Below, in pieces: positions 48,046 through 64,000 of a DNA stretch of 64,000 nt; position 1 is the first letter of the stretch, and every line of letters begins with the position of its first letter. A program made the position numbers and the translations under genes. Origin of the DNA: Candidatus Tectimicrobiota bacterium (lineage in GTDB: Bacteria; JACPUC01); NCBI GenBank assembly GCA_016192455.1, contig JACPUC010000019.1:62001-126000 (forward strand). Reading direction: 5' to 3'. The notes under the pieces were generated by a model. It was not told the origin of the DNA. It was given only the letters and a program-made list of their open reading frames with translations, and did no database searches.

Positions 48046-49058
48046 AGCGATTTCCTGACTCCTGTTGCAGCAACGATACCCGCCGGAGACAGGCCAGGAA
48101 AAGCTTCGAAGCTGGTACGTCTCCGTGCTCAGGGAGTATCTTCCGCGGAAAATGCTGCAAGGATCATAACTGCCCGCGGTCAGCAGCCGACAGGACTACC
48201 CGCTTTGCGCTCTCTACTTGTGTTCGATAAGGTTCTCTCGCTCTCCCCCGTTGCCCGTTGTGTGTGCTGGTATGCCGGGGGCAACGCAGTGCTGCAAGCG
48301 GCCCTTGGCGCGGCGCCGTTGAGGCGCTGACACGGCACCGCGCTTGTTCATGCCGTGGCCGCCCGCAATCTAACAGATTAACTTGCCACCTATGGCAAGC
48401 TCACGCTTTGATACATGTCAAGAGTTGCCGGCAATTCGAGGGGAGCGGCGTGGCGTTCCTGGTGCTGCCACCAAGGTGCAGCGTGACACGGAAAGCACCG
48501 CGCGCCATCCACCCGCAAGGGGACGCTGCTGCGGCCCCGGGGCATGAGATGTGAAGCTTGCGGACTGTGAGCGGCGATCAAGGGCGCTATGCAGCTATCG
48601 CGGCATCTCATCGCTTCTGTCTTCGCGGCATGAATTCTGTGGGGGACCTCGTTCCCGCGGCCCCCGTTCCGCGAGCGAACGGCGGCGAAAAGGGCGCGGC
48701 AGCTCGAATTTTCCCAGAAGCAACGTCCCCTCGCGCCAGGAGGTTTTCGCTCACGAGTCTTTCTCTGGCGTGGCGTCCTGGTGCGTCAGATGCTTCCCTG
48801 GGACGGACCACCACCCCCCCCCGCCGGAGCCGCAAAGCGGCTTGACCCCTCGCCGCGCCCTTGTTAGAATGCGGGATAATTCCTGGACGTCGAGGCAGGC
48901 TGGCGCAATCAATCGGGACATGGCTCGCCAAGCTTCGTGCCGGGCACGTTCCTGCTCAGCAGGATCGTCTTTCCCGTGGTCGGGGTCTTGGCATCAACAA
49001 GTCGCCCCCGGCCGTTGGGCGGAGCGGTGCGGGTGAGCGCACGTCGGGAGTGAGGGTT

Positions 49059-50936
49059 GTGAGTGTCCCTGGAGAGCTTCGGAAACTCCAGAGCTTCTAT
49101 CGCCGCGGCGCATGGCCCCAGGTCATTCAGGTTGGCGAGCAGTTGCGGCACCAGGGCCGGGATGACCATGTCCTCAACGCCTGGCTCGCCATGGCCTACC
49201 ATGTCACGAAGCAAGACCAGAAGGCCATCCCGCTCTGCGAGAAGCTGTACCAAACGGCCACTTTCAGCGATGTGCAGACGGAGTGCCGCGAAATCGGCAT
49301 CTCCGCGATGCGCTACCACGTCGTGCTGGCTCGCCACTTCTTCCAAGAGAAGCGGTACGATGAGGCTTTGCGCATCTGCGAACGGCTGAAAGTCTTCGAC
49401 AACAAGCTTTCCGACAAGTTCATCATCGCCGGCAAGGTCTATCTCGAGCAAGGACATTACTCGCGCGCTGCTGAAGAGTTCGCGCGCCTGCTCACCGAGC
49501 GCCCCGACCGCGCCGATAACGCCGTCGCATGCCTACGCTACCTCCTCGATGCCGAGCCGAGCAACGAAGCCGCCCACCGCGCCCTCTTCGACCTCTCCGA
49601 ACGCACCGGAACGACCCGGAAGCAGATCAGCGACAACGAGGCGCGGCTTGCCCGCTCGCCCGATGAGGCGCGGGCGATCTTTGCGTTGGGTTACCTCTAC
49701 ACCTTCAGCGGCTCCGCGCCGCAGGCCCTCGCTCTGTGGCAGCGCTACCTCGCGAAGTACCCGACGTGGAAACATCTCCACCTGGCGCGCGGCCACGCAC
49801 ACTTCCACCAGGACGACTACGCGCAGGCCGAGAATTGCTGGCAGCAGTTTGAGCCGGCAACAATCGCCGAGGCCGAAGCGCTCCTGCAGTGCTACAACCG
49901 CCTCTTCAGCCGCTCCTGGAGCTCCGAGCCGGTGCTCTGGCGGCTGGTCGAGCTCGGGGTGAAGTGGGACCGTCTCGATGTGGTCGAGGGTCCCCTGAAG
50001 ATCATGCGGAAGATCAAACCCGACTCGCCGATGATCGGCCAGATTCTTGAGCAGGTCCTCGTCCTCCAGGTGGACCGGCACACAAAAGCGGGAAGCTCCA
50101 CCGCGGCCCTGGCACGGCTGAAGGAGCTCGTTCGGCTGCATCCCGACAAGCCGGCCTACCAGCAACGGCTGGCAGAATTTCTTGCGGCTCACCCCGGGCT
50201 GCAGGCCCAGAAGGACGAGGTACGGGAGGCGCCTGCCCCCTCCGAACCAGCACACGGCGCCACCCTCGTGGGAGATCTCACCACCCCGGCTGGGGGATTG
50301 CATTCCGCGACCGAAGCCATCGTCGTCGTCGACCTCTGCGATTCCACCACCCTGGCCTCCAAGTTCGGTGACCGTTATCTCCTGGAGGTGAAGAAGCTTC
50401 TGGCGGATACCGCCGAGCCGCTTTTCAAGCAGCACCAAGTCCGCTGGCTGAAGAGCACGGGAGACGGTTACCTGAGCATTTTCCCCAACAGCCGGGAGGC
50501 AGCGTTGGCAGCCGTGACACTCCTGCGCACCTTTCAGGAGGAGAAGCAGCTCGCTGAGTCCCATCCCATTCACATCCGCATCGGCATCCACTTCGGCGAG
50601 ACGCAGGTCGATGGCAACGGCGAGCGCCATGGGCAGGTGGTTCACAAGGCCTTTCGGATCGAAGGGGTAAAGCCTTCGGACCTTACCCAAGTGGAGGGGA
50701 GCGCCCCGCGCGCAGAGGTGCCGCTGCGCAACCGCATCTTCCTCTCCGAAGAGGTGTACGACGACATCTATCAGGACGACATCCCGCGCTGCCGGTTTAT
50801 CGGTGTCACCGAGCTGAAGGGGTTCTCCGGCCTGCACCGCCTTTACGAGCTGAAGTGGCAGGAACAGCCGCGTAAACTTCAGCCGGCGGCGGGCGAAAGC
50901 GACCTTGAGCACCGCGGCACCGGTCCAAGGGTCTAG
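49059..50936 (+). CDS. TPR-repeat protein with C-terminal class III adenylate/guanylate cyclase domain
   Basis: Helical TPR-like repeats (AGKVYLEQGHYSRAAEEF); VVDLCDST, KSTGDG, IRIGIHFGE, LKGFSG; start approximate. Confidence 0.85.
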   Translation: MSVPGELRKLQSFYRRGAWPQVIQVGEQLRHQGRDDHVLNAWLAMAYHVTKQDQKAIPLCEKLYQTATFSDVQTECREIGISAMRYHVVLARHFFQEKRYDEALRICERLKVFDNKLSDKFIIAGKVYLEQGHYSRAAEEFARLLTERPDRADNAVACLRYLLDAEPSNEAAHRALFDLSERTGTTRKQISDNEARLARSPDEARAIFALGYLYTFSGSAPQALALWQRYLAKYPTWKHLHLARGHAHFHQDDYAQAENCWQQFEPATIAEAEALLQCYNRLFSRSWSSEPVLWRLVELGVKWDRLDVVEGPLKIMRKIKPDSPMIGQILEQVLVLQVDRHTKAGSSTAALARLKELVRLHPDKPAYQQRLAEFLAAHPGLQAQKDEVREAPAPSEPAHGATLVGDLTTPAGGLHSATEAIVVVDLCDSTTLASKFGDRYLLEVKKLLADTAEPLFKQHQVRWLKSTGDGYLSIFPNSREAALAAVTLLRTFQEEKQLAESHPIHIRIGIHFGETQVDGNGERHGQVVHKAFRIEGVKPSDLTQVEGSAPRAEVPLRNRIFLSEEVYDDIYQDDIPRCRFIGVTELKGFSGLHRLYELKWQEQPRKLQPAAGESDLEHRGTGPRV

Positions 50937-51011
50937 CGCGCCACGGTGCTCCTGGCGGCACAAAAAGCTCGCCTCACAGGCCCCGATCAAGCAGCGCGGC
51001 AGTCCCCCCAC

Positions 51012-51240
51012 CTGCGGGTTCAAGACGTCGATTTCTCCCGCAACGAAATCCTCGTCCGCGACGGCAAGGGGGCCAAGGACCGGATGACGTTGCTTCCCGA
51101 GTCACTCAAGGCCCTGCTCCAGGAACACATGAAGAAAGTCAAGACGATCCATGAATGGGATCTGGCCGACGGCTGGGGCCGAGTTGCTACCGCCCGACGC
51201 CCTCGAGCGTAAGTATCCCAACGCTCCACCGGATGCCTAA
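51012..51240 (+). pseudogene. intI: Integron integrase internal fragment (frameshifted)
   Basis: LRVQDVDF..NEILVRDGKGAKDRMTLLP...DLADGWGRV, then in the next frame PDALERKYPNA (IntI-specific insertion); N- and C-termini missing. Confidence 0.88.
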
Positions 51241-51344
51241 AACTGGTGATACGGCATACGTAGTTGAGATGAAAGGTTTTGAGCGGATGAACAAGAGGAA
51301 GTGGGAACTTCTTGTGCAGAAGGACACAGTCTTAATTTCCAATC

Positions 51345-51373
51345 TTATACAGACTGTATAATCATTGTTAGGC
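51345..51373 (+). mobile_element. attI-like recombination site
   Basis: Inverted repeat TTATACAG-A-CTGTATAA followed 5 nt later by core GTTAGGC (GTTRRRY), directly before the first cassette ORF. Confidence 0.55.
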
Positions 51374-51392
51374 GTCACATGATTTCAACACC

Positions 51393-52027
51393 ATGAGCGA
51401 TCTTCAAACGCTAACCGACGCCTTGCGGACTCGTTTTCCTGCGCCTCCCCCTCAGGCAACCGAGGGCTGGGCGAATCCTGCACTCTGCGTTCTGGACTGC
51501 GTCCTTTCCCTTAACCGACCCTACGACAGCGTTGTGCTGCCCCGTGTCACGCGGTTCGCCGAGAAACATACCGGCGTGGATACGCTCCAGGCGCTTCAAG
51601 TCCTGATGGGGTCCTACCCGAGCCTCTTCGACTTCTCGGCCGTCGAGCTCGACTACAAGGATTCCCGCCGTGCCAACACTCTGCAAGGAGTAGTCAGCTA
51701 CCTCCTGGATGTTGAGCAGGATTTCCCCGGTTCCAGCGAACTGCAGCGGCTGCGCGCCTGGGCAAATTGGGCACAACCGGGCGACTCCGCCTTCACTGGG
51801 GTGCGTGGCTTCGGTCTGGCGGGCTTCCAGTACCTTCGGCTGCTCTTCGGGGCGAACACCGCAAAGCCGGACGTCTGGATTTGCAGGTTCGTTCCGACAG
51901 CATCGCTCGCACCGTCGGTCCAACTGAGGCGCTATTCCTTCTTGAGCGTGCGGCAAAGCGCGCCAATCTTCACCTGAGGGACATCGACGCGGCGATTTGG
52001 AGTCAAGCTCACGGCAGCGCCGGCTAA
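51393..52027 (+). pseudogene. Gene cassette 1: HhH-GPD-like hypothetical protein with a 1-bp frameshift near 51893
   Basis: GVRGFGLAGFQYLR...KPDVWICRFV continues in the adjacent frame as SDSIART...IDAAIWS to a stop that overlaps the attC inverse core. Confidence 0.65.
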
Positions 52028-52089
52028 CCACGGCATGCACCTAACCGCCGCAAAACGCGCGGCGGCGGGTGATGCCCCGGTCGTTAGCC
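52022..52089 (+). mobile_element. attC site
   Basis: GGCTAAC...GGCATGCACC...CCGCCGC-loop-GCGGCGG...GGTGATGCC...GTTAGCC: complementary R boxes, L boxes with one extrahelical base, 68 bp. Confidence 0.85.
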
Positions 52090-52320
52090 GCAGTTCCCGG
52101 AGACCGCGATAGGCTTTTGGCTGAAACTCTTCGGTCGGGACCTCGGAGGGTGAACGAAGACCCCGCCTGGCGCAGCCTGCGATGGTGGAGAGGAGCGGAA
52201 AAGCTGGCGATGGCGGAAGGGAAGAAACAGGCGCTGCGGCAGAGGGGCTCCGTCCGCTGCTGAGCACCCAGACGTGAGCCAGCTTGAGCACGATTCGAGA
52301 ATCCGGGAGACTGTCACGTT

Positions 52321-52665
52321 ATGCTGACGGGCCGCCGCCTCCCTGATGATGCGCTCACGTTTGTTCAGCGATGCATCCGCGAACGCAAGGTTTACTGGAC
52401 CTACCATGTGAACATGCGTCTGGCTGGCCGTCACATTTCAAGGGACGCCATCTTCGGCGCCGTGGACAGCTACCAAGTCGTCGAATCGTATCCAGATGAC
52501 AAGTACTTCCCGAGCTATCTCGTCTTGGCGACGCCGACGGGCGCTGCATTCCACGTCCTTTTCGCGGTCGATGTTGAAGCCGACAATGTGCGGGTGATCA
52601 CCGCGTATCATCCCAACCCCAACGATTGGGAGCCGGATATGAGGACAAGGAGAAGCAAGACATGA
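52321..52665 (+). CDS. DUF4258 family protein (putative toxin), cassette 2
   Basis: WTYHVNMRL..R.I, VESYPDDKYFPSYLVL, HVLFA, VITAYHPNP..W. Confidence 0.85.
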   Translation: MLTGRRLPDDALTFVQRCIRERKVYWTYHVNMRLAGRHISRDAIFGAVDSYQVVESYPDDKYFPSYLVLATPTGAAFHVLFAVDVEADNVRVITAYHPNPNDWEPDMRTRRSKT

Positions 52666-52883
52666 AATGCCGAGTGTGCGGCAGCATGTTGCATGCGACG
52701 ACCACCGATCTTCCGTTCAAGGTGAGCGATCGAACCATCGTCATCCTCAAACACCTGCCGGTAGCGCAGTGTGAAGGATGCAGTGAGTACCTGATTGCAG
52801 ACGCTGTGTTTGTGAAAGTTGAGGAACTGCTTGCCAAGGTCAACACGTCGGTTGAACTGGAAATCATTCAATTCGCTGCTTAG
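52662..52883 (+). CDS. YgiT-type zinc-finger protein (MqsA-like putative antitoxin), cassette 2
   Basis: MKCRVCG...LPVAQCEGCSE; ATGA overlap with the DUF4258 gene. Confidence 0.85.
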   Translation: MKCRVCGSMLHATTTDLPFKVSDRTIVILKHLPVAQCEGCSEYLIADAVFVKVEELLAKVNTSVELEIIQFAA

Positions 52884-52977
52884 CTGCGGCGCTGGCTAAC
52901 AGGCGACTGGCACCGATGTATCTTTTTGACTGAGTGAAGGAGTGCAGGCCAGGGATAACCCACCCTGAAAACACCAG

Positions 52978-53018
52978 GGCCCCGGAAGCCGCTGCGCCAG
53001 GCATGGGCTTCCGGGGCC
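52978..53018 (-). terminator. Hairpin, probable terminator of the third ubiD gene
   Basis: 13-bp perfect stem GGCCCCGGAAGCC/GGCTTCCGGGGCC about 40 nt past the stop, with GTTTT shortly after it on the minus strand. Confidence 0.55.
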
Positions 53019-53057
53019 GTTTCATCTCGGCGCCGGTCAGGACGTCGTCTATCCCCC

Positions 53058-54671
53058 CTACTCCTTCGCCTCCTTCCAACCGCGGAACGGCTTGCGGCGC
53101 TGGGCCAGTTTCTCGCCGGTTTCGAGGTAGAGGCCCTGGACGGCCATCTGCGCCTCCTTGTCCCACTCCTCCGGCCAGTAGCCAAGGGCGTAGCCGTGGT
53201 AGGGGTAGCGCGTCTTCAACGGCGGCAAGCCGAGCTCCTCCCAGATTTCCTTCGCATGGTCCATGTACTCCTTCGCCGGCAGCGACACGGTTGGATAGGC
53301 GTGCTTGCGCGTCGCGTCGATGAGCATGGCCGAGGTGCCGACCGGCTTCGGGAAGCGGCGGTCCTCCGTCTCCGTCCCCGAGGGCGCCGCGGAGGGATCG
53401 AGCATGGAGGATTTCCCCGTCGTGATGCGCACGTCGAGGTGCGGCTGCATGCAGAATGAGAGCGCCCAGTTCACCGACTCCGGGTCGTCGGGGTCGATAT
53501 CGGGGTCCACGGTGATGATGATCTTGCCGATCGTCGGGTCGAGGGCGACGGCGGCGTTGAGCGCCTGCCAGGGCTGGCTCGGATTCGTCTTGTCGAGCTG
53601 GATGACGATGTACATCCAACTCCCGCTCATCTCGTGGAAGGCCACCCGCTGCACCGTGGGGATGTTGCAGTCGTACTTCAGGAATTTCAGCATCAGGGCG
53701 TCGTAGCTGATCTTGCGGATCATGCTGCTCTCGCTGGGCGGGAACTGGCTGATGAACGCTTGGTAGATCGGCTTGCGGCGGTGCGTGATGCAGGAGATGT
53801 TGAAGACGTGGTTCTTGGCGCGCTCCCCCATGTAGCCGCTGTACTCTCCAAAGGGAGCCTCATCCTCGAGGTACTCGGTGGAGAGCTCGCCCTCGACGAC
53901 GATCTCCGAGGTTGCCGGCACTTCGAGGTCCACCGTCTCGCACTTCACCAGCTCGATGGGCGCTCCGGCCAGACCTCCCGCGACATCGTACTCATTGACG
54001 CCGTAGGGGATCTTGGCGACGCTGCACATGCCGACATAGGGAACGCAGCCAAGGATGATGGCTGCCGGCAGGTTCTGGCCGAGCCGCCGCGCCTTCTCGA
54101 GGTGGATGCCGATGTGCTGCGCCCCGTGGGTCATGATGCCGGTGCGGGTCCGTCCCTTGATCATGCCGCGGTAGGTGCCGACATTGACAATGCTGGTTTC
54201 CGGATCCTTCGTCACCACGTAGGGAGAGGAGAGGTAGGGGGCGGTGTCATAGCCCGGGGTGGAGATAGGGATGGGGAACTTGTCGATGCCGCCCGCCTCG
54301 AGGAGGGCATCTCCTTGCAGGATGACCTCCTTGACCGGTCCGCCGTCCACCATCTTTGGCGGGATGGGGAAGCGCTGCGCCTGCACCCAGCGTTCCTGAA
54401 TCTCCTCCACCTTGCAGCCCATGCCGGCGGCGTAGATCGGCCGCGAGGCGCCCAGAATCCCCACCGCCACCTTGGCGTCGAAGGAGCGCCCACGCGAATC
54501 CGTGAGGCTCTCAAAGAGAAAGGCCTTGCGCTCATCGCTCGGCAGACCGCGGAACTGCCAGCGCACCAGCGGCATGAGCTCCGTGTCCTTGTTGATCGTG
54601 CGCTTGACGCGGTAGAGCAAGCCCTTCTGATCCAGGTCGTTGATGAAGTCGCGTAGATCCTTATACGCCAT
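53058..54671 (-). CDS. UbiD-family decarboxylase
   Basis: YKDLRDFI, PIPISTPG.D..PY, NVGTYR, EAPFGEY, VDPDIDP, LDPS, IDATRK. Confidence 0.93.
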   Translation of the reverse strand: MAYKDLRDFINDLDQKGLLYRVKRTINKDTELMPLVRWQFRGLPSDERKAFLFESLTDSRGRSFDAKVAVGILGASRPIYAAGMGCKVEEIQERWVQAQRFPIPPKMVDGGPVKEVILQGDALLEAGGIDKFPIPISTPGYDTAPYLSSPYVVTKDPETSIVNVGTYRGMIKGRTRTGIMTHGAQHIGIHLEKARRLGQNLPAAIILGCVPYVGMCSVAKIPYGVNEYDVAGGLAGAPIELVKCETVDLEVPATSEIVVEGELSTEYLEDEAPFGEYSGYMGERAKNHVFNISCITHRRKPIYQAFISQFPPSESSMIRKISYDALMLKFLKYDCNIPTVQRVAFHEMSGSWMYIVIQLDKTNPSQPWQALNAAVALDPTIGKIIITVDPDIDPDDPESVNWALSFCMQPHLDVRITTGKSSMLDPSAAPSGTETEDRRFPKPVGTSAMLIDATRKHAYPTVSLPAKEYMDHAKEIWEELGLPPLKTRYPYHGYALGYWPEEWDKEAQMAVQGLYLETGEKLAQRRKPFRGWKEAKE

Positions 54672-54901
54672 CAATGGCTCTCCTCTCCGGTGCATCACGC
54701 CCAGCGCCTTGCCCGCCGGCCTGCCGCGCGCGCCGCGGCCCCGCAGAAATCCCCCCTGCCCCGCGCAGGCGGCAGGGCAAAGTTACCAACATCTTGAGTT
54801 TGACGCAAGGCCGCTGCGGAAAGCCAGCGGCGTGCGCTTGGGGGGAGTGACCCCTGGCGCCGTCTCCTCCAGGCGGCCGCCCATGCGGAGCCTCCTACCC
54901 C

Positions 54902-56227
54902 CTAACGGGCGCAGGTTCGAAAGCCGGCGAAGACGTCGCGCCGGTCGGGCGTAAAGAAGTTGCGCCAGGTGTTGCGGATCATCCGGGCGCGCGTGGCCCA
55001 ACAGCCCCCCCGCAGCACTCTGCGGCTGCCGAACCAGGGTTCGGAGTACTCCTTGTAGGGATCGGGCACGAAGCCTGGATACGGGCCGAAGACGCTGGAG
55101 GTCCACTCCCAAATGTTTCCCAGCATCTGCCGGCAGCCGAAGGCGCTGTCGCCGGCGGGAAGGGCGCGCGCATCGACGGTTCCCGCTCTCCGGGCATCCA
55201 GGTTGGCCCGCCGCGGCGTGGGAGGTTGATCCCCCCAGGGGAACCGGCGTTTGCGCCTGCTGAAGCCTCCGCCGGGGCGCGGCTCGCCGCAGGCGGCCAG
55301 TTCCCACTCCGCCTCGCTCGGCAGGCGCCGACCGGCCCAAGCGCAATAGGCCTCCGCCTCGTACCAGCAGACATGGATCACCGGGTGCCAATCGAGGAGC
55401 GGCGCCTCCCGATCGTACCTGCGAACACCCCAGCCGCCGTCGGCGGCGCGGCGCCAGTAGATGGGATGCTCGGCTCCCGCGGCCTGGCGCCAGGCCCATC
55501 CGACATCGCTCCAAAGCTCTCTGCGCCGGTAGCCGCCGGCCTCGACGAAGGCACGGAACTCGGCGTTCGTCACCGCCGTGCGGGAGATGGCAAAGGGCTC
55601 GATGGGAACAGGATGGGCCCATTTCTCGTTATCAAAGACGAAGGGTAGGTCGGGCGTGCCGCCTAGCATGAAGACGCCGCCGGGGACATCTACATCGCCT
55701 CGGCACGATTCGTCCGCTTGCCCCTGCCCAGCGGAGGACGACTCGGCTCCGCCGCGCTCGTTCGCGGGGGCCGCGAGCTTCGGCTCGGGGTAGGCGAGCG
55801 TCTGCAACATGTAGGTGAACGCTTCGGCGTGCATATCCTCGTGGAAGAGGACGAGCCGATGAAAGTACACCGCCTCGTCGCTGCAGGCGCCTCGCCGAAG
55901 ATGCGCCAGGATGCGTTCCAGGACCTCTTCCATGTAGCGCAGCGTCTCGGCGCGCGACGGCAACGGCAGGTCCCAGCGCGTGTCGTGGGGGATGGCGATG
56001 GAATCGTAGAGAGAATCGGAATCCCCGCGGGGCGCTGCTTCGCCGCGCAGGTGCCGCAGGATCCATTTTTCCTGGAACCAGGCGACATGCCCGATCTCCC
56101 AGCGGAATGGGTTGACGATGTCGAGCTTCGGCCCCATGAGCTGCTCATCGCTCAGGTGCGCCACGAGATCGAGGCTGCGCCCGCGCGCCTCGGATAAGCT
56201 CTCGATGAGGTCGGTTGCCACGTTCAT
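54902..56227 (-). CDS. senA: Selenoneine synthase SenA (EgtB/OvoA sulfoxide synthase family)
   Basis: DinB-like domain with WEIGHVAWFQE, LYDS..IPHDTRW and HEDMHAE iron motif; FGE-sulfatase domain FDNE, RLPSEAEWE, GNIWEW, RNFF..GFRTC; adjacent to senB. Confidence 0.85.
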   Translation of the reverse strand: MNVATDLIESLSEARGRSLDLVAHLSDEQLMGPKLDIVNPFRWEIGHVAWFQEKWILRHLRGEAAPRGDSDSLYDSIAIPHDTRWDLPLPSRAETLRYMEEVLERILAHLRRGACSDEAVYFHRLVLFHEDMHAEAFTYMLQTLAYPEPKLAAPANERGGAESSSAGQGQADESCRGDVDVPGGVFMLGGTPDLPFVFDNEKWAHPVPIEPFAISRTAVTNAEFRAFVEAGGYRRRELWSDVGWAWRQAAGAEHPIYWRRAADGGWGVRRYDREAPLLDWHPVIHVCWYEAEAYCAWAGRRLPSEAEWELAACGEPRPGGGFSRRKRRFPWGDQPPTPRRANLDARRAGTVDARALPAGDSAFGCRQMLGNIWEWTSSVFGPYPGFVPDPYKEYSEPWFGSRRVLRGGCWATRARMIRNTWRNFFTPDRRDVFAGFRTCAR

Positions 56228-56488
56228 GGAATTTCTCATACTTCGCGGCTCGCCGTTCGCCGCCCGCCGCTCACCCGGCAGCGACGCCGCTCGTTCCGGC
56301 GGCAGGGTTCTTGCGCCGCGCTCAAACGCGACCACCGCGGCAGTATCCTGGCAGCGCCCAGCCCGGCTGCGCGGGGGAGCGGCGAGACGGGCGATCGTCG
56401 CCCCTCTTCAAAAAGTCTCTCCGGCAATGGCGCTCGGCGGAGAGAAAATGCTACCATAACAACGCCACACCTGAACCAGGAGGCTGCC

Positions 56489-57466
56489 ATGAAGATCTGA
56501 CTCGTGACGCCGGCCCCCGCTCGGTCCCGAAGCGGCAATCGTGCGACAGCCCTGCGCTGGGCAAGAATCCTGCGTGAGCTTGGCCATCGCGTCAGCATCG
56601 AGGTGGCGCACACGGGCGCCCCCTGCGACCTGATGATCGCCCTGCACGCGCGCCGCAGCGCTGCCTCGATCCAGCGTTTCCACCAGCGCCATCCTCAGGT
56701 TCCGCTTGTCGTCACCCTCACCGGCACCGACCTGTATCGGGACATCCAGACGAACCCCCGGGCGCAGCATTCGCTGGAGCTGGCGAGCCGACTCATCATC
56801 TTGCAGCCGATGGGGATTGAAGAGCTCGCCCCGCATCTGCGGGGCAAGGTGCGGGTGATCCACCAGTCCGCCGCGGCGGAGGTGAAGCCTGCGCGCAAGT
56901 CGAGCCGCAGCTTTGACGTCTGCGTCATCGGCCATCTGCGCCAGGTGAAAGACCCGTTCCGGACCGCCATGGCGGTCCGCCGTCTTCCTTCCGACTCGAT
57001 CCTCCGCGTCTTCCACGTCGGCCGGGCCCTCTCCAAGGCGATGGAGCAGCGCGCCACGGCTGAGACGCGGCGCAACCCGCGCTACACCTGGCTGAAGGAG
57101 AAATCCCCCGGCCAGGTGCGGCGGCGGCTGGCGCGCTGCCATCTCCTCGTGCTCAGCTCGAAAATGGAAGGCGGGGCGAACGTCATTTCCGAGGCGCTGG
57201 CTCTCGGCGTGCCGGTGCTCTCCTCGAACATCCGCGGCTCGATCGGCATTTTGGGGCCGGATTATCCGGGCTACTTCCCCGTGGGGAACACTGCTGCCCT
57301 CACGACCCTCTTGCTGCGTGCCGAGACGGAGCCGGACTTCTACCGCGAGCTGCAACGGTGCTGCGCCGAGCGCAAGCCCCTGGTCGACCCAACGCGGGAG
57401 CGCGAGGCGTGGCGGCGCCTGCTTCTGGATCTCCAGCCTGAGCCAGGGAATCAGCGTCTTTCCTAG
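56489..57466 (+). CDS. senB: Selenosugar synthase SenB (TIGR04348-type glycosyltransferase) with in-frame TGA at codon 4 (possible selenocysteine)
   Basis: MKI(U)LVTPA...GNRATALRW, ALHARRS, LTGTDLY, GHLRQVKDPF, MEGGANV; AGGAGG RBS 5 nt before ATG 56489. Confidence 0.88.
56502..56546 (+). promoter_or_regulatory. Candidate bacterial SECIS element
   Basis: Upper stem CCGC-TCG/CGA-(A)-GCGG with loop GTCC starting 23 nt after the TGA; lower stem TCGT(G)ACG/CGTGCGA; pairing worked out by eye. Confidence 0.55.
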
Positions 57467-57729
57467 AAGTTCACTTCCTCGCGTCGGGTGCGGCATTGAG
57501 CGCAAGGGGGGAGGCAAGCGCCGGGAGCCCTTGCGCTCCCTTCCCCGCCAGGGCGCACTGCGCGGGCGCGAAAACAGCCGCGGACGGCGCCCCGCCAACC
57601 CGCGGAGCCCCGTCCTTCGCATGGGGACGTTGCGCAAAGCTACGCTCCGACCCCACACCTCGTTCGTCGCGGCTCATTTTTCCCACACGGACCGAGGACC
57701 ACGGGCAGGGCAACCACATGCCGTGCCGC

Positions 57730-58806
57730 TTAGGCAAGCCCGGCTCCCCGAAGCGGCTCCCAGGCGATCCAGGCCTGGAGGTCGAAATCCGCCTTGATGA
57801 ATCCCCACCGCAAAAGGAAATCCTTCTGCCGCTCGATCGCCGCGATTGACTCTTCGGCCAGGTTGACTTCCATGCGGCAGTGGAAGTCCGAGGCATGCGC
57901 GGCGTCCACCCACTCCGCCGGCGCCCCCACGTCCTTGGCGACAATCAGGGCGACCTCGGAGCGATGCGTCGCCGCCCAGCGCGCCGCGTCATTCAGGCGT
58001 TTCACGTAGCGCGCCACTAGGTCGGGATGGTTGCGCACCAATTCGCCGCTGGCTGTCAATGCGGTGGGCGTCTGGTTGTTGGTGCGCACCGTGTGGTCGG
58101 GATGCCTGCCCACGTCCACGACCGTCGTGGCGCCGAGGAAATCAGCCAACCACGCCCCCGCCGCCCCCGCGCTGTACATCGCATCCACGTTGCCGTGGAT
58201 GAGGGCAAAGGCTTCAACCTGCTGGCGGCGCGCCCGATGCCCGCCGCTCCACAAGGTGCCGCGGTGGGACGCCGAGTCCGCGCCGAGGTAGCGCTCCACC
58301 ATCGGCAGATCAACCAGCTCCGCGTCCCGTTCGTCCATCCCCTCGAGGGCCAGCGCGGAGAGGTAGCCGCGCAGGCACATGGCGCGCCAGAAGTCAATCT
58401 GGTCGTTGACGCGGCGCGGCAAGGCCAAGCGGCGGCCGCGCAGGTCCCGAATGGTGCGGATGCCCGACTCCGGTCGGGCGATGATGGCCTGATACTCATC
58501 CACCCACGACAGGCCGATCAAGCGCACGTCGCCGCCGCGTGACCTCGTCCAGATGGGCGGGATGTTGCCCCCCTGGCGAAAGGAGTCGGACTGGGTATGG
58601 TCGAAGTGCGATTCGCGGATGCGCTGCTCCTCTGAGGCCCGCAGGGAGGCGATCTCGATGCCATCCGGCGCGAACTCCTCATCGAGCCAGCCGTGATCGA
58701 TGGCCAGGCTGGAAACGGTGGGAATCGGGCAGCGGGTGTACCAGAGTGCTTTCACCGCCGCTGGCGTCGTCCCCACCTCGGACGTCACCTCCGCTCGTTG
58801 TGCCAT
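57730..58806 (-). CDS. DszB-like (2'-hydroxybiphenyl-2-sulfinate desulfinase family) PBP2-fold protein
   Basis: WYTRCPIPT, SHFDH, FRQGGNIPP; no signal peptide. Confidence 0.8.
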   Translation of the reverse strand: MAQRAEVTSEVGTTPAAVKALWYTRCPIPTVSSLAIDHGWLDEEFAPDGIEIASLRASEEQRIRESHFDHTQSDSFRQGGNIPPIWTRSRGGDVRLIGLSWVDEYQAIIARPESGIRTIRDLRGRRLALPRRVNDQIDFWRAMCLRGYLSALALEGMDERDAELVDLPMVERYLGADSASHRGTLWSGGHRARRQQVEAFALIHGNVDAMYSAGAAGAWLADFLGATTVVDVGRHPDHTVRTNNQTPTALTASGELVRNHPDLVARYVKRLNDAARWAATHRSEVALIVAKDVGAPAEWVDAAHASDFHCRMEVNLAEESIAAIERQKDFLLRWGFIKADFDLQAWIAWEPLRGAGLA

Positions 58807-59058
58807 TGCAAGCCCTTCCTGCAATTTTGCCGAGGGTTCATGGTTCCTCTCCGCCTGGAAACCGGCAGGCTGCGGTGGCTTGCACCCTCACCACCGCGCC
58901 CGCCGGCCGCTGGGACATGGCAACGCTGCGCCGGCTCCTCGCCGGAGCGCTTCTCCAGGCCGACCAAAACTCTCCTGACCAGGACAGCCGCCCCGGCCGT
59001 AAACGCCACAAGACCTGCGCGAACCGCGGCGCGGCGCGCTCGACTCGGCGTTGCCCGC

Positions 59059-60225
59059 CTACTCAATGCGCAGGAACTCGCCCTTCGTCACCTGCACGAC
59101 GTAGATTTCCTTATCCGCGTCGCCATCCGGCCGAATGCTCGTCTTGCCGGTGATGCCGGGAAAATTCTTCAACTTTGCCAGGTGGTCGCGAATCTTCTTG
59201 CGGTCCTCCTGCTTTTGTTCCGGGCGGTTCGTGACGCCGCTCTCCTCAATGACCTTCTTCAGGATGTAAACGGTATCATAGACGCTGGCGGTGTAGTGCG
59301 GTGGGTCATGCTGCTTGCGCTCACGGAAGTTCTTGATGAAAGCCTGGGCGCGCGGGTCTGGATTGCCCAGCCAGAAATACGCCGGCATGACCACCCCTTC
59401 CACCGCCTCGCCGCCCTGGCGGATGAAGCCCCAGGCGCTCGAGCCGATGCCCATCACCACTGGCTGCTTCAAGCCTTGGCGCCGCACCTCTTTGACAAAA
59501 TTGGCGCCCTCGTACTGCACGGCGGAGAGGACGATGGCATCGGGGTTGGCGAACTTCACCTTCGTGACCTGGGCGGAGAAATCGACATCGCCGGTGACGA
59601 AGGTGAGCGTCGTATCTATCTCGATCTTCCGCTCCTTGAGGAGCGGCGGAAAATCCTGCGTCGCCTGCGTCTTCGACACGACGTCCTTGTTGTCGTAGAC
59701 CAGCACCACCTTCTTCACATTCGGGTTCCGCTTCAGGAAGACGTCGAGCGTCGAGCCGACCATGCGCTCGCTGGTCACCACATTGCGGAAGGTCCAGGGG
59801 CGGTTCTCCGCTGCAATGCCCTTGGCCGCCGCGGTGCCCGAGATCATGACGACGCCAGCGCGGTTGGCCACCGGAAAGGCCATCTTCGCCGAGGTGCTCA
59901 AAAACGGCCCCATGATCGCCAGCACCTGGTCTTGCTCGATGAGCCGGCGCGCGGCCTTGATGGCATCGTCAGGCTTGCTGGCGCTATCGTACTTGATGAA
60001 ACGCAGGGGCACGCCGCCAACGCCGCCGCCGCCGTTGATCTCCTGCAAGGCGATGTTCACGGTGACCTCATTGGTCTGTCCCCACTCCGCTGCCCAGCCG
60101 CTGAACGGATCGATCCAGCCCAGCACCACCTCCTTCCCCGCCAGCTTCTGGGCCGCGGCGACGCCTGGCACGAGAAGTGACACGAGAGCCGTTGCGCAGA
60201 GAATCCAGTAGACCAACCTTCTCAT
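59059..60225 (-). CDS. Orphan Liv-type ABC substrate-binding protein
   Basis: Signal peptide, KLAGKEV, EINGGGGVGG, NRPWTFR, DVDFSAQVTK. Confidence 0.9.
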   Translation of the reverse strand: MRRLVYWILCATALVSLLVPGVAAAQKLAGKEVVLGWIDPFSGWAAEWGQTNEVTVNIALQEINGGGGVGGVPLRFIKYDSASKPDDAIKAARRLIEQDQVLAIMGPFLSTSAKMAFPVANRAGVVMISGTAAAKGIAAENRPWTFRNVVTSERMVGSTLDVFLKRNPNVKKVVLVYDNKDVVSKTQATQDFPPLLKERKIEIDTTLTFVTGDVDFSAQVTKVKFANPDAIVLSAVQYEGANFVKEVRRQGLKQPVVMGIGSSAWGFIRQGGEAVEGVVMPAYFWLGNPDPRAQAFIKNFRERKQHDPPHYTASVYDTVYILKKVIEESGVTNRPEQKQEDRKKIRDHLAKLKNFPGITGKTSIRPDGDADKEIYVVQVTKGEFLRIE

Positions 60226-60440
60226 GGTATCCCCCCTTCTTCCAAACCCTCACCGAAGAGAACCCCGACCAGCCGAGGTCCCTTGCAACACCTGACGTGA
60301 CCACCTCCCCAACGCCCAACAACTCCAGATGAACCGAGCTCCGTCTCGAAGACCGCCCACCTTCGGAGTTGCGCTGTCAACGTGAGGAGGCACCACGATG
60401 TCTGGGCGTGCGGCACAGATAACCCAAAGGATGAAGTTAG

Positions 60441-60469
60441 AGCATGGCACGTCTTGCAAAGGGCTGCAA
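60441..60469 (-). promoter_or_regulatory. Extended -10 sigma-70-type promoter (shared signature C)
   Basis: Minus strand TTGCAG-N17-CATGCT with CGTGC before the -10. Confidence 0.55.
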
Positions 60470-60814
60470 GACTCAATCTCCGGTCATTGACGCAAGGCAG
60501 CTCACGCCGCTCCCGGGGCGCGGAGGTAGCGAGGTCGCGCCGACTGAAGCTCGCCAGGCCAGTCGCTGCGCAGGGCGGCGCCGGGGCTTCACCATCAGCA
60601 GCAGCCGCGCGCTTACCCCGCCCGCCACCTCTGGCGGCGACGGGGCGAGCAAGCCGGCTCACGCCGCCTCCCCACCCCCCCTTGACAACCATGCTTCGCA
60701 GGAGCATAGTAGACTCAACGCGAAGTCGCAGTTATGGTGTCATAACTGCATGCAGGACCGCAGTTGCCACCAACATGTGGTGTCGCGGTTATTTTGTCGG
60801 TAAGGAGTACGTAC

Positions 60815-61015
60815 GTGAAGGGTGAAGTGAAGAAGTTGGTGCGGGATCGGGGGTTTGGCTTCATTCGAGCGGAGGATGGGCGAGAGATCTTCTTCCATTT
60901 TTCGGCACTACAACCAGGCGTGTTTGATACGCTGGTGGAAGGCGATGCCGTGGAGTTCCAGGTGGAGCAAGGGAACAAGGGTCCACGTGCGACTCAGATG
61001 TCGGTGATCGCCTAA
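60815..61015 (+). CDS. Cold-shock domain protein
   Basis: KGEVK, RGFGFI (RNP1), IFFHFS (RNP2), KGPRA; TAAGGAG RBS before GTG 60815; TTGACA-N17-CATAGT at 60682-60710. Confidence 0.93.
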   Translation: MKGEVKKLVRDRGFGFIRAEDGREIFFHFSALQPGVFDTLVEGDAVEFQVEQGNKGPRATQMSVIA

Positions 61016-61409
61016 GGAGGGGTGGTAGCGCGGGGCACAACGGGCGGGTTTGGACGTGTGCCGCTGCGTGCCCCCGCGCGCCCCCGCGCGCCAACGAGAG
61101 AAGGGGGAGCCGTGGAAACGGCTTGAGGGTGTAAGTTCGATGGAGTGAAAGGGTGCTTTCTATCGCGCGAATCCCCGCCCCCTGACTGTTGTTGTGATTC
61201 CTCTCTGACGAGTCTCTGATCCCCCGCCGCAGGCGCTCAGTACTCTCTCCCAATCCTTTCGTTCCAGGCAGGTGGTGCGCTGGCGTGCGCCCCGCAGCGC
61301 CAGGTTCGTGCGCCCGAAGCGCGAGACGCGGCTCTGCCGCAGGCTGCTGCGCGGCAGGCCAGGCGCGGTCCGCTGCAGACCTGCCCCAGGACCGACCGCG
61401 GCGGCCGTT

Positions 61410-61874
61410 TCACTTTGCCGCATCGAAGCGACCCTGCTCCACCACGTGCTGGTGCGGCAGGACCTTCCAGGCCGCCATCGCGGCGTAGCTCTGGATCAGC
61501 TCGCGCTCCTCGGCGGCGAAGGCGCGCTCCTCTCGACTGCCGACGGCCATCATGCCGAGACGCCTGCCGGCGGCAAAGAGAGGAAGACCGGCCAACGACG
61601 CGATCTCCTCTTCCCGCACCCAGGGGATGTCGCGCACATGCTTGTCCGCCCGCACGTTCGGCACCCATACCGGCTCCGACCCCGCCGCAACCTTTCCCGC
61701 AAATCCTTCTCCAATCGGCACGATACGCCAGTCCTCGGCCTTGACGACGCGTCCGGCGTAAGCCATCACGCGCAGGCGCTGGCGTGAGTCAAAGAGACGC
61801 AGGCGAGCCATCGACAGACCGAGCAGCCGGACCGCGCACTCCACCACGGCATCGAAAGGTTCAAATTGGGTCAT
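61410..61874 (-). CDS. Stand-alone GAF domain protein
   Basis: GEGFAGKVA...PVWVPNV..D, SLAGLPL...LGMM, RAFAAEE...A. Confidence 0.75.
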   Translation of the reverse strand: MTQFEPFDAVVECAVRLLGLSMARLRLFDSRQRLRVMAYAGRVVKAEDWRIVPIGEGFAGKVAAGSEPVWVPNVRADKHVRDIPWVREEEIASLAGLPLFAAGRRLGMMAVGSREERAFAAEERELIQSYAAMAAWKVLPHQHVVEQGRFDAAK

Positions 61875-62887
61875 GCCAGTCTCACTTGGGCAGGGGTTGC
61901 AGCCTGGGCCGAGAGTCAGGGAAGCGCGTGAGCCTTGCCCCTCGGCCTCTTTGCCTGGCAGGCGCGGGCAGGCGCGCCTCCTCTCCGGAGGCTGCCGCCG
62001 CTATCGCGGCGCAGGGGCGCAGGGGAGTGTTTGCGGCCCCCAACCCCCCTTGGCACGGCCGCCTGCCGCGCAGTGGATTCATCAGGGAACTCTCGGGACG
62101 TACCACGAATTGAAGCTGCTCAGCATCTCGTAGGAGCGCTTGGCATCCTCGTAGGAGGCCTGCGCCACTCTACCCTGCTCTTTGTCTGTTTTCACCCTAC
62201 GCTTGAGCAGGGCAGTGGACGCTGTGGTGGGCACCTTACCTCTTATCCTCTCTTCCGAGACCCTACGCGCCCGCCCTCCGGATTTCGGCCGGACCTTCCA
62301 GGCTGCTCGTGGAGCAAGCGGCCAAGAAGGCGGCCCAGGAGGGGCGGCGCATGCAAGCCGCTCGTATCGCTCCCGCGGTCTGCCGCTCGCCGGTTTGGCG
62401 GCATTGCCTTTTCCGCCCGCCGAGGAGGCGGTGGCGCACAAGGCTGCCTTTGCGGCGAGCCGTGGCGCACTTTGCTTTGGCGGGGGGCGAAGAGCGTGAT
62501 ATAGTAGTCTCCTTCACAGTAACCGCCAGCACTCTTGTCGGGGCTCTCTGAACTTGCGGACTGAGGCCGCCGTGGGCAGCAGCCGGGATGCCCGGCGCCG
62601 CTCTTCCTGGGTGGTTGGAGCCGCGCCGGTGGCGCCGAGTGCGCTGTTCACGCGCCGGCACTTGAGGTAGGATGGAGGCACAGCGATTCGAGCTCTGAGA
62701 AACACGACACCCTGGAGCAGCCAGCCTTGTCCCCGTCGGTAACCTGGCCTCAATGCAACGGCACGACCGGGAGAGCAGGAGCCGGCTTCCAGATTTGTAA
62801 GGAGGTGCAAGCAACCGGAACGTTGTTCAAACACGGTTGGAGGTGAAGGGGGAAGCTACGTTCTAAGGCAGAGGAGGAGAACTCAAG

Positions 62888-64000
62888 ATGGCAAGAAATT
62901 CTCAACGTCGCGCCTGGATAGTGTTCGTCATGGTAGCCATGGCCCTGAGCCTGCTGACGATCATGCCACGGCAAAGCGCCGCCATCGAAGGCCCCGAGAT
63001 CAAGATCGGCGTCTTGAAGCCCTACACGGGATGGGGGGCTGAGACGGCACAGTATGCCGAAATCGCCATGGACATGGCCCTGGACAAGATCAACAAGGCC
63101 GGCGGCATCAACGGCATCCCCATCCGGCTCATCAAGTACGACACGCGCAGCAAAGCGGAGGAGGCGATCCTGGCCGCCCGGCGGCTCCTGGAGCAGGACA
63201 AGGTGCTGGCCATCATGGGGCCTGAGCTGAGCGCCGAGGCGCAGGTCGTCTTCCCGGTCATCAATCGAGGCGGCGTGATGGCGGTCTCCTCGATGGCCTC
63301 GGCACCCGGCATTGCCGCCGCGAACCGCCCCTGGGCGTTCCGCAACATCATGACGAGCGAGAAGCTCCTTGAGCCGGCGTTGGCCAAGTTCTTGAGCAAG
63401 CATCCAGAGATCAAGAACGTGGTCATCGTGTATGACAATAAGGATTTCCTGTCGAAATCCGAAGGCACGAAACTCTTTCCGGAATTGTTGAAGCCGCACA
63501 ACATCAAGGTCGTGGACATGGTCGCCTTTCACACCGGCGATGTCGACTACGCGGCGCAGGTCACCAAGATCAAGAACACGAAGCACGATGGCATCATCCT
63601 TGCCGCCCTCTACTATGAAGGGGGGTACTTCGTGCGCGAGCTGCGGCGGCAAGGTGTGAAGAGTCCCGTGCTGGCCGGCATCGGCATCTCCAGCCCGGTG
63701 TTCATGCGCGCCGGAGGCGAAGCTACAGAAGGGGTTGTCAACGCGCAAGGGTTCTGGACGGGAAACCCGCGGCCCGAGGTGCAGGAGTTCGTGAAGGAGT
63801 TCCTGGAACGCGCCAAAGGGAAAGTCCAAGTGATTACGCCGCCGCAGTACACCGCCTCCAACTACGACTCGTTGATGATCACCGCCAAAATCATCAAGGA
63901 GTCGGGGGTGACGAACCGCTCCGAAGACCTCGCCAAGGACCGCGAGCGTATCCGCAACGGTTGGCAGAATCTGAAGGATTACCCGGGCATGCAGGGTAAG
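62888..64000 (+). CDS. Liv-type ABC substrate-binding protein (runs off the window end)
   Basis: Not in the ORF track (no stop in window); GAGGAGGAG RBS, ATG 62888, signal peptide, INKAGGINGIP, NRPWAFR, GVTNRSEDLAKDRERIR. Confidence 0.9.
   Translation, partial: MARNSQRRAWIVFVMVAMALSLLTIMPRQSAAIEGPEIKIGVLKPYTGWGAETAQYAEIAMDMALDKINKAGGINGIPIRLIKYDTRSKAEEAILAARRLLEQDKVLAIMGPELSAEAQVVFPVINRGGVMAVSSMASAPGIAAANRPWAFRNIMTSEKLLEPALAKFLSKHPEIKNVVIVYDNKDFLSKSEGTKLFPELLKPHNIKVVDMVAFHTGDVDYAAQVTKIKNTKHDGIILAALYYEGGYFVRELRRQGVKSPVLAGIGISSPVFMRAGGEATEGVVNAQGFWTGNPRPEVQEFVKEFLERAKGKVQVITPPQYTASNYDSLMITAKIIKESGVTNRSEDLAKDRERIRNGWQNLKDYPGMQGK

Follow-up and report, generated by a model that had tools for sequence, protein, structure and literature searches.

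Selenoprotein genes of the E. coli fdhF type combine an in-frame UGA, a hairpin with a GU loop about 20 nucleotides (nt) further on, the selA, selB, selC, and selD genes, and homologs that carry cysteine in place of selenocysteine (Sec). In bacteria, criteria of the bSECISearch type recognize a Sec insertion sequence (SECIS) as a hairpin just past the UGA with a G in its apical loop; in the fdhF SECIS, this loop is GGUC. Here, we describe a similar set of features in a gene of selenium small-molecule metabolism. SenB makes a selenosugar from selenophosphate for SenA, the selenoneine synthase, and the senB gene considered here lies in a 64,000-nt stretch from a metagenome-assembled genome (MAG) of Candidatus Tectimicrobiota (assembly GCA_016192455.1, contig JACPUC010000019.1, positions 62,001 to 126,000 of the forward strand), which at its full length is referred to below as the window. 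The fourth codon of this gene is TGA, and we propose that it is probably read as Sec.

Genes for SenB with an in-frame TGA (hereafter TGA-type senB) share with the fdhF type the in-frame UGA, the Sec machinery in nearly all genomes, the homologs with Cys, and, in most of the distinct sequences, a hairpin with a GU loop; many of these hairpins also have the GGUC loop. They depart from it in that the UGA stands at codon 4 or 5, at a site that is highly variable and probably not catalytic. Their product belongs to the GT-B glycosyltransferases and acts in selenium small-molecule metabolism. The characterized SenB enzymes (V. paradoxus, PDB 8jjq and 8fbx; 8k5u) resemble the protein of the window in scoring above the cut-off of NCBIfam family TIGR04348, in their catalytic residues, and in having senA as a neighbor, but they have Val or Ala in place of the residue at the UGA. 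Another point of comparison is the Sec-type selenophosphate synthetase SelD/SPS2, which, like the putative Sec form of SenB, is a selenium-pathway enzyme with Sec near its N terminus; the selD in the genome of the window is another example. For Sec-containing selenophosphate synthetases, autoregulation has been suggested. In SelD, the Sec/Cys is described as a catalytic residue of the N-terminal loop (PMC13188914), whereas the SenB site is probably not catalytic. A precedent for a Sec codon that couples expression to selenium supply is found in Treponema primitia, where selenium is reported to control the expression of fdhF(Sec) by translation through the UGA/SECIS (PMC3892789). In that system, unlike senB, the Sec is catalytic and the effect was shown on transcription, whereas for senB we infer the coupling.

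An in-frame TGA in senB

On the forward strand, a Shine-Dalgarno-like AGGAGG (56478-56483) stands 5 nt before ATG 56489, which is followed by the codons AAG ATC TGA and then by L-V-T-P-A-P. Past the TGA, the frame is open for 321 codons, and the next stop is the TAG at 57464-57466, such that the coding sequence (56489-57466) comprises 325 residues when read through codon 4. The read-through product matches the SenB profile TIGR04348 at 419.9 bits, against a cut-off of 300, with residues 3-312 aligned to profile positions 1-308 of 310; as the profile begins at residue 3, the TGA is profile position 2. The protein also matches solved SenB structures at E 2.7e-67, belongs to a set of about 8,000 database homologs at E<=1e-20, and has all of the catalytic and substrate residues (N17, T20, H53, T78, T80, R151, K154, and E227). 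An AlphaFold2 model from 30 homologs, with a mean predicted local distance difference test score of 91.4, places residues 2-6 in a β-strand (β1), and with them the TGA at 56498-56500, which would encode residue 4. An earlier note on this DNA, made from its letters alone, had pointed to the AGGAGG spacing, to the frame M-K-I-TGA-L-V-T-P-A running open to 57466, and to the position of codon 4 in the N-terminal β-strand. All three are borne out by the sequence, the profile match, and the model. The note had also considered GTG 56504, the first start reported by the open reading frame (ORF) listing, to be poorly placed for a ribosome-binding site, and this codon (56504-56506) is indeed 20 nt from the AGGAGG.

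We consider it likely that senB starts at ATG 56489 and that UGA 56498-56500 is decoded as Sec, with a downstream hairpin serving as the SECIS. Insertion of Sec, rather than another residue, is the most likely outcome at codon 4. This interpretation, first put forward in the earlier note, is strongly supported by the recurrence of the TGA in other senB genes, by a hairpin that is kept through codon choice, by the intactness of the genes, and by the Sec machinery of the genome.

Comparison of codon 4 among relatives, which the earlier note had recommended, showed that the TGA is not unique to this assembly. Degenerate DNA scans, in which TGA is followed by the SenB N-terminal motif, retrieved 14 loci from species-representative genomes, all of them senB with an in-frame TGA here (14/14). 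A broader degenerate pattern retrieved 20 loci from metagenome contigs, and every one was likewise a senB with an in-frame TGA at the codon (20/20). The sources of the genome scan were seven Limnoglobus MAGs, a Fimbriiglobus MAG, three other Planctomycetota, a Bryobacteraceae MAG, another Acidobacteria MAG, and two MAGs labeled "bacterium." Searches with TIGR04348 did not require a TGA. Among 201 genomes sampled from the order of one of these MAGs, 10 of the 38 SenB-bearing genomes had one in-frame TGA; among 401 genomes sampled from the phylum of the Bryobacteraceae MAG, TGA was present in 3 of 32 and TAA in one (one of these 32 genomes, G318, is unpublished and entered in that count only). 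In total, TGA occupies the senB codon in 20 genomes and 20 metagenome contigs, a recurrence at the same codon that is far beyond chance. The TAA of the Acidobacteriota senB (L143, G363:C283) lies in frame within the profile match, and that gene is probably a pseudogene. Within the window, TGA ends 27 of 56 long open frames; thus, the genetic code is not reassigned there.

Conservation of the downstream hairpin

RNAfold predicts a SECIS-like hairpin on the forward strand of the window, with its core at 56517-56535. The core consists of a lower stem of 5 base pairs (bp; 56517-56521/56531-56535), an upper stem of 2 bp (56522-56523/56528-56529), a bulged A (56530), and a GUCC loop (56524-56527); an outer helix is predicted at 56508-56513/56539-56545. 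The energy of 56510-56545 is -12.2 kcal/mol. The TGA codon and the loop are separated by 23 nt, which places the loop G 26 nt from the U of the UGA.

Across the family, the hairpin was assessed with a strict test requiring a perfect stem of at least 4 bp, at least 3 G-C pairs, and a GU loop starting 20-28 nt from the U, and the expectation was obtained by synonymously recoding each sequence with the codon usage of its own gene. By these criteria, which were picked after sight of the TGA-type sequences and applied to sequences that are mutually related, 23 of 30 distinct TGA-type sequences carry the hairpin versus 1.4 expected. Among 50 non-TGA senB genes, the corresponding numbers are 2 observed and 1.6 expected. 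The hairpin therefore goes beyond what the protein motif and GC-rich codon usage account for; in genes with the TGA, it is maintained by synonymous codon choice. An RNAfold-based test, with the GU loop again starting 20-28 nt from the U and an energy of -7.5 kcal/mol or lower, gave 24 of 32 distinct TGA-type sequences versus 6 of 50 distinct non-TGA senB genes drawn from the two sampled groups.

Other measures were tried and set aside. Raw minimum free energy (MFE) separates the two groups poorly (best-hairpin means of -15.0 and -10.4 kcal/mol), and an MFE test against synonymous recodings reached p<=0.05 in 5 of 20 TGA-type and 5 of 33 non-TGA genes. A hand-written structure of 7 pairs was 73% paired, with covariation no better than in shuffles. 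The earlier note had named a hairpin that is not conserved as evidence against its proposal; scored sequence by sequence, the hairpin does recur among the TGA-type genes. A search of Rfam gave no match to a SECIS family and only three matches, all at chance level (E 1.7-7.4).

Selenocysteine machinery

The earlier note had named the absence of Sec machinery from the genome as evidence against its proposal. The machinery is present: selA (596 bits), selB (366 bits), the tRNA for Sec (75.5 bits; gathering score 47), and a Sec-type selD were found, and all four exceed their cut-offs. The selD gene (G000:C3:190907-191827, locus L001) itself has one in-frame TGA (VAG-TGA-AAKLGPGDL), followed about 20 nt on by a hairpin with a G-rich loop, at a distance similar to that in senB. 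It is not beside senA and senB: no selD occurs within 48001-64000 of the window, and the one strong selD of the genome is on another contig. The MAG that contains the window comprises 31 contigs, is 88% complete, and was found in groundwater runs; the 60 relatives compared with it are all related at the domain level only.

Among the genomes with a TGA-type senB, 18 of 20 encode selB, including 12 of the 14 scan genomes and all 5 of the further TGA-type genomes. More generally, selB is present in 56 of 61 SenB-bearing genomes from the two sampled groups, in addition to the 12 of 14 from the scan, and the selenoneine genes travel with the Sec trait in the sampled lineages. Two candidate discriminators of TGA-type genomes were rejected: selB, which occurs in nearly all SenB-bearing genomes with or without the TGA, and adjacency to selD, seen at a single senB locus out of about 80, the two types taken together.

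Alternative readings

Several observations count against the decoding of codon 4 as Sec. The hairpin region of the window has an MFE z-score of +0.76, with folding at least as good in 159 of 200 dinucleotide shuffles. The region is also less stable than the mean synonymous recoding (z +1.33), 9.2% of 250 such recodings yield an equally good GU-loop hairpin in place, and the hairpin fails the strict perfect-stem test, passing a looser test only. Taken alone, the hairpin of the window is not beyond chance. Of the two-part GTCC-loop hairpin described in the earlier note, the existence and the 23-nt spacing stand with RNAfold, but shuffles and recodings do not support the view that it is telling in itself. 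At the family level, the after-the-fact choice of the strict criteria has to be set beside the failure of a single consensus register, as RNAalifold gave no pairs on a codon-locked alignment of the 30 TGA-type sequences; structures in fixed columns fail because the hairpins sit in slightly shifted registers. The presence of selB likewise extends to 51 of 56 SenB-bearing genomes without the TGA, which makes it a prerequisite rather than a discriminator, and most Sec-competent owners of SenB have no TGA. Finally, the window offers a possible restart at the GTG two codons past the TGA, and 3 of 24 complete TGA-type genes (L064, L100, and L104) are damaged downstream.

Sec might be inserted for its chemistry, as a residue active in redox or selenium handling and superior to the Cys of many SenB proteins. 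Sec/Cys pairs are the usual sign of functional selenoprotein sites, SenB handles selenophosphate, and Cys leads the residue counts at the site in the 119 closest homologs (Cys 58, Ala 19, Arg 14, Leu 12, Thr 9, and 2 each of Ile, Ser, and Val; the remaining protein, P0003, is truncated). One TGA subclade, moreover, reads U-I-V-C, with UxxC spacing. We nevertheless find such a role somewhat unlikely. The site holds L, F, G, H, V, R, and others in 50 further senB genes, and homologs collectively also show G, R, L, F, H, K, T, and S. Biochemically active SenB enzymes (activity from PMC10891094) carry Val, in V. paradoxus, or Ala, in 8k5u. The residue is predicted to lie inside strand β1, and it is not among the reported selenophosphate-pocket residues (N20, H58, R61, T83, T85, and R155; PMC10891094). 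Given this variability and the Val or Ala of active enzymes, Sec at codon 4 is probably not catalytic, in keeping with the earlier note, which saw no obvious catalytic site there. The subclade with the UxxC spacing (L087, L088, L090, L096, L097, L099, L101, L106, and L107) is distinguished by a Cys where the T-P motif otherwise has Thr; its TGA members read U-I-(V/A/L)-C-P, and its non-TGA members read F-M-A-C-P and similar.

The evolutionary history of the site bears on whether the TGA is under selection at all. Trees were built from the residues after the focal codon and are unrooted. Both omit the frameshifted L064 and L100, the unpublished L139, fragments shorter than 270 residues, and duplicates; from the smaller tree, near-duplicates and three long-branch rows were also dropped, and only 16 of 57 database proteins were kept. 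The TGA label changes 13 times among 136 rows (FastTree), with at least 6 changes forced by well-supported branches, and 12 times among 85 rows (IQ-TREE quick search), with at least 4 forced. Holding all 22 TGA rows together is rejected (log-likelihood -502; p of the approximately unbiased test, 3e-72). The window pairs with P0003 (support 99-100), apart from the other TGA clades. Types with Gly (GGA, GGG, GGC) or Arg (CGA) are frequently sisters of TGA types, and a single base separates GGA or CGA from TGA. Because the trees are unrooted, gains and losses of the TGA are indistinguishable. The Sec form of SenB appears to be recurrent, here mainly in Planctomycetota and Acidobacteriota, and would have been gained or lost several times. 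In one pair of sister genes (support 100), L057 from Fimbriiglobus has TGA and L093 (G220) has GGG but still carries most of the downstream hairpin sequence, a pattern that fits a recent switch between Sec and Gly.

Such frequent changes, 12-13 in all, could also be produced by drift. The codons of the P-x-x-S-R loop, which is conserved, can form a hairpin, so that a change from Cys to TGA would be tolerated in a Sec-competent cell as a near-neutral accident; a few non-TGA genes (L069, L074, and L093) do carry the same hairpin. We regard this explanation as unlikely. Recoding predicts the hairpin in 1.4 TGA-type sequences, not in 23 of 30, and the TGA persists across clades that are 39-56% identical, although one-base changes reach G, R, C, L, and S, all seen at the site.

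If the TGA were instead a true stop, the AGGAGG would serve a mini-ORF (ATG-AAG-ATC-TGA), and the ribosome would restart at GTG 56504 to make SenB minus its first five residues. In the window, this GTG is only 3 nt past the TGA, the hairpin is statistically unexceptional, and only part of the modeled strand β1 would be lost. The other TGA-type genes make a restart quite unlikely. Most of the 31 distinct TGA-type sequences have an upstream start 3-4 codons before the TGA, whereas an in-frame start within 2 codons past it occurs in only 3 of the 31 (the window, the Bryobacteraceae type, and L064). In the remainder, the next in-frame start is 11-35 codons on or does not occur within the 45 codons searched, and a later start would therefore cost the N17/T20 loop that binds the sugar and selenophosphate. 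Among 33 distinct TGA-type sequences, the codon immediately before the TGA encodes I, V, or L through 8 different codons, and the one before that encodes R, K, N, or H through 9. With the residue class kept across this synonymous variation, it is the protein sequence upstream of the TGA that is conserved, and codon choice keeps the hairpin across the TGA-type family.

TGA-type genes are mostly intact. The 29 TGA-type proteins of at least 270 residues are 39-56% identical in pairwise comparison (median 47%); all 29 keep N17, T20, H53, T80, and E227, and 28 keep R151 and K154. By alignment, N17, T20, H53, T80, E227, R151, and K154 of the window correspond to N20, T23, H58, T85, E231, R155, and K158 of V. 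paradoxus SenB, for which the mutagenesis report gives N20, T23, H58, T83/T85, R155, K158, and E231 as the sugar-donor and selenophosphate residues and the catalytic Lys (K158) (PMC10891094). As for the damaged genes, frameshifts interrupt L064 and L100 after about 90 and about 80 residues, respectively, and L104 has lost about 40 residues, including the region of the catalytic Lys (K154); they may be decaying copies or assembly errors. On one metagenome contig (L112:1606-3180), the TGA-type frame runs about 200 residues past the usual SenB end, with 523 residues after the TGA, and looks like a fusion with the downstream gene.

That the TGA of the window is itself a nonsense mutation in a decaying gene, or an assembly error, is very improbable: it is one step from TGC/TGT (Cys in 58 of 119 close homologs), frameshifts or a deletion do occur in 3 of 24 complete TGA-type genes elsewhere, and two Logan assemblies from different samples that are identical to the window over 56300-57500 may both stem from the source study, but those assemblies have depths of 25.8 and 8.7, the 321 open codons follow with the catalytic residues all in place, the same codon is TGA in many other lineages, and the 83%-identical P0003 is also called with a shortened N terminus at nearly the same point. 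A relative's contig from another study (X6) spans the TGA as well and differs at 6 positions; among the differences listed, none falls on the codon, and this contig was set aside. No RNA run was among those listed for the sequence.

Genomic context and gene calls

On the reverse strand at 54902-56335, senA is divergent from senB. Its product scores 520.8 bits against NCBIfam NF041186 (cut-off 420) and has the Pfam domains FGE-sulfatase and DinB_2. The public gene call for the senB of the window, P0002 (287 amino acids), starts at a GTG whose position, computed from the sequence, is 56603-56605; it loses 38 N-terminal residues, among them the substrate-binding N17 and T20. P0003 (292 amino acids), the closest relative of the window's SenB, has its called start at almost the same internal point. 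Since public gene calls shorten them, such genes will be missed or miscalled by surveys of selenoneine potential and of selenoproteomes.

Proposed mechanism and implications

Under Sec decoding, the hairpin at 56517-56535 would serve as the in-frame bacterial SECIS to which SelB binds with its Sec-tRNA(Sec), and the product would be full-length SenB with a strand β1 reading M-K-I-U-L-V-T-P. The most likely effect, which the earlier note had put forward as a selenium-availability checkpoint, is that completion of SenB would require charged Sec-tRNA(Sec) and, through it, selenophosphate; when selenium is short, only a three-residue peptide would be lost. As SenB uses selenophosphate and Sec-tRNA(Sec) is made from it, SenB output would be tied to selenium. 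The TGA and the hairpin persist even though one-base changes yield residues seen elsewhere, which suggests selection for the codon and not for the side chain. We tentatively propose, as a possible interpretation, that UGA-4 is a selenium-supply gate through which selenoneine synthesis would rank below the making of selenoproteins in a bacterial hierarchy of selenium uses. The SECIS would be built by synonymous choice over the P-x-x-S-R loop, and the device would have been repeatedly gained or lost in Planctomycetota, Acidobacteriota, and the lineage of the window. A gate of this kind is consistent with the variable site and with the Val or Ala of active enzymes.

We found no published description of a Sec-containing SenB in the full-text literature, a body that takes in neither supplements nor subscription journals. 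The accessible parts of three papers on SenB structure and mechanism and of the discovery preprint make no mention of a Sec form, and a 2026 review on the selenoproteins of prokaryotes contains neither "SenB" nor "glycosyl" in its main text; the deep-Sep paper likewise has neither term. SenB would thus be a new selenoprotein family member within a known recoding system, with a Sec that is close to the start and probably noncatalytic.

If this is correct, SenB would join the bacterial selenoproteins as an enzyme of selenium small-molecule metabolism with Sec at a dispensable site 3-4 codons into the gene. With TGA, Cys, Gly, and Val alleles all in existence, the family would provide a natural system for asking whether Sec codons sense selenium and rank its uses.

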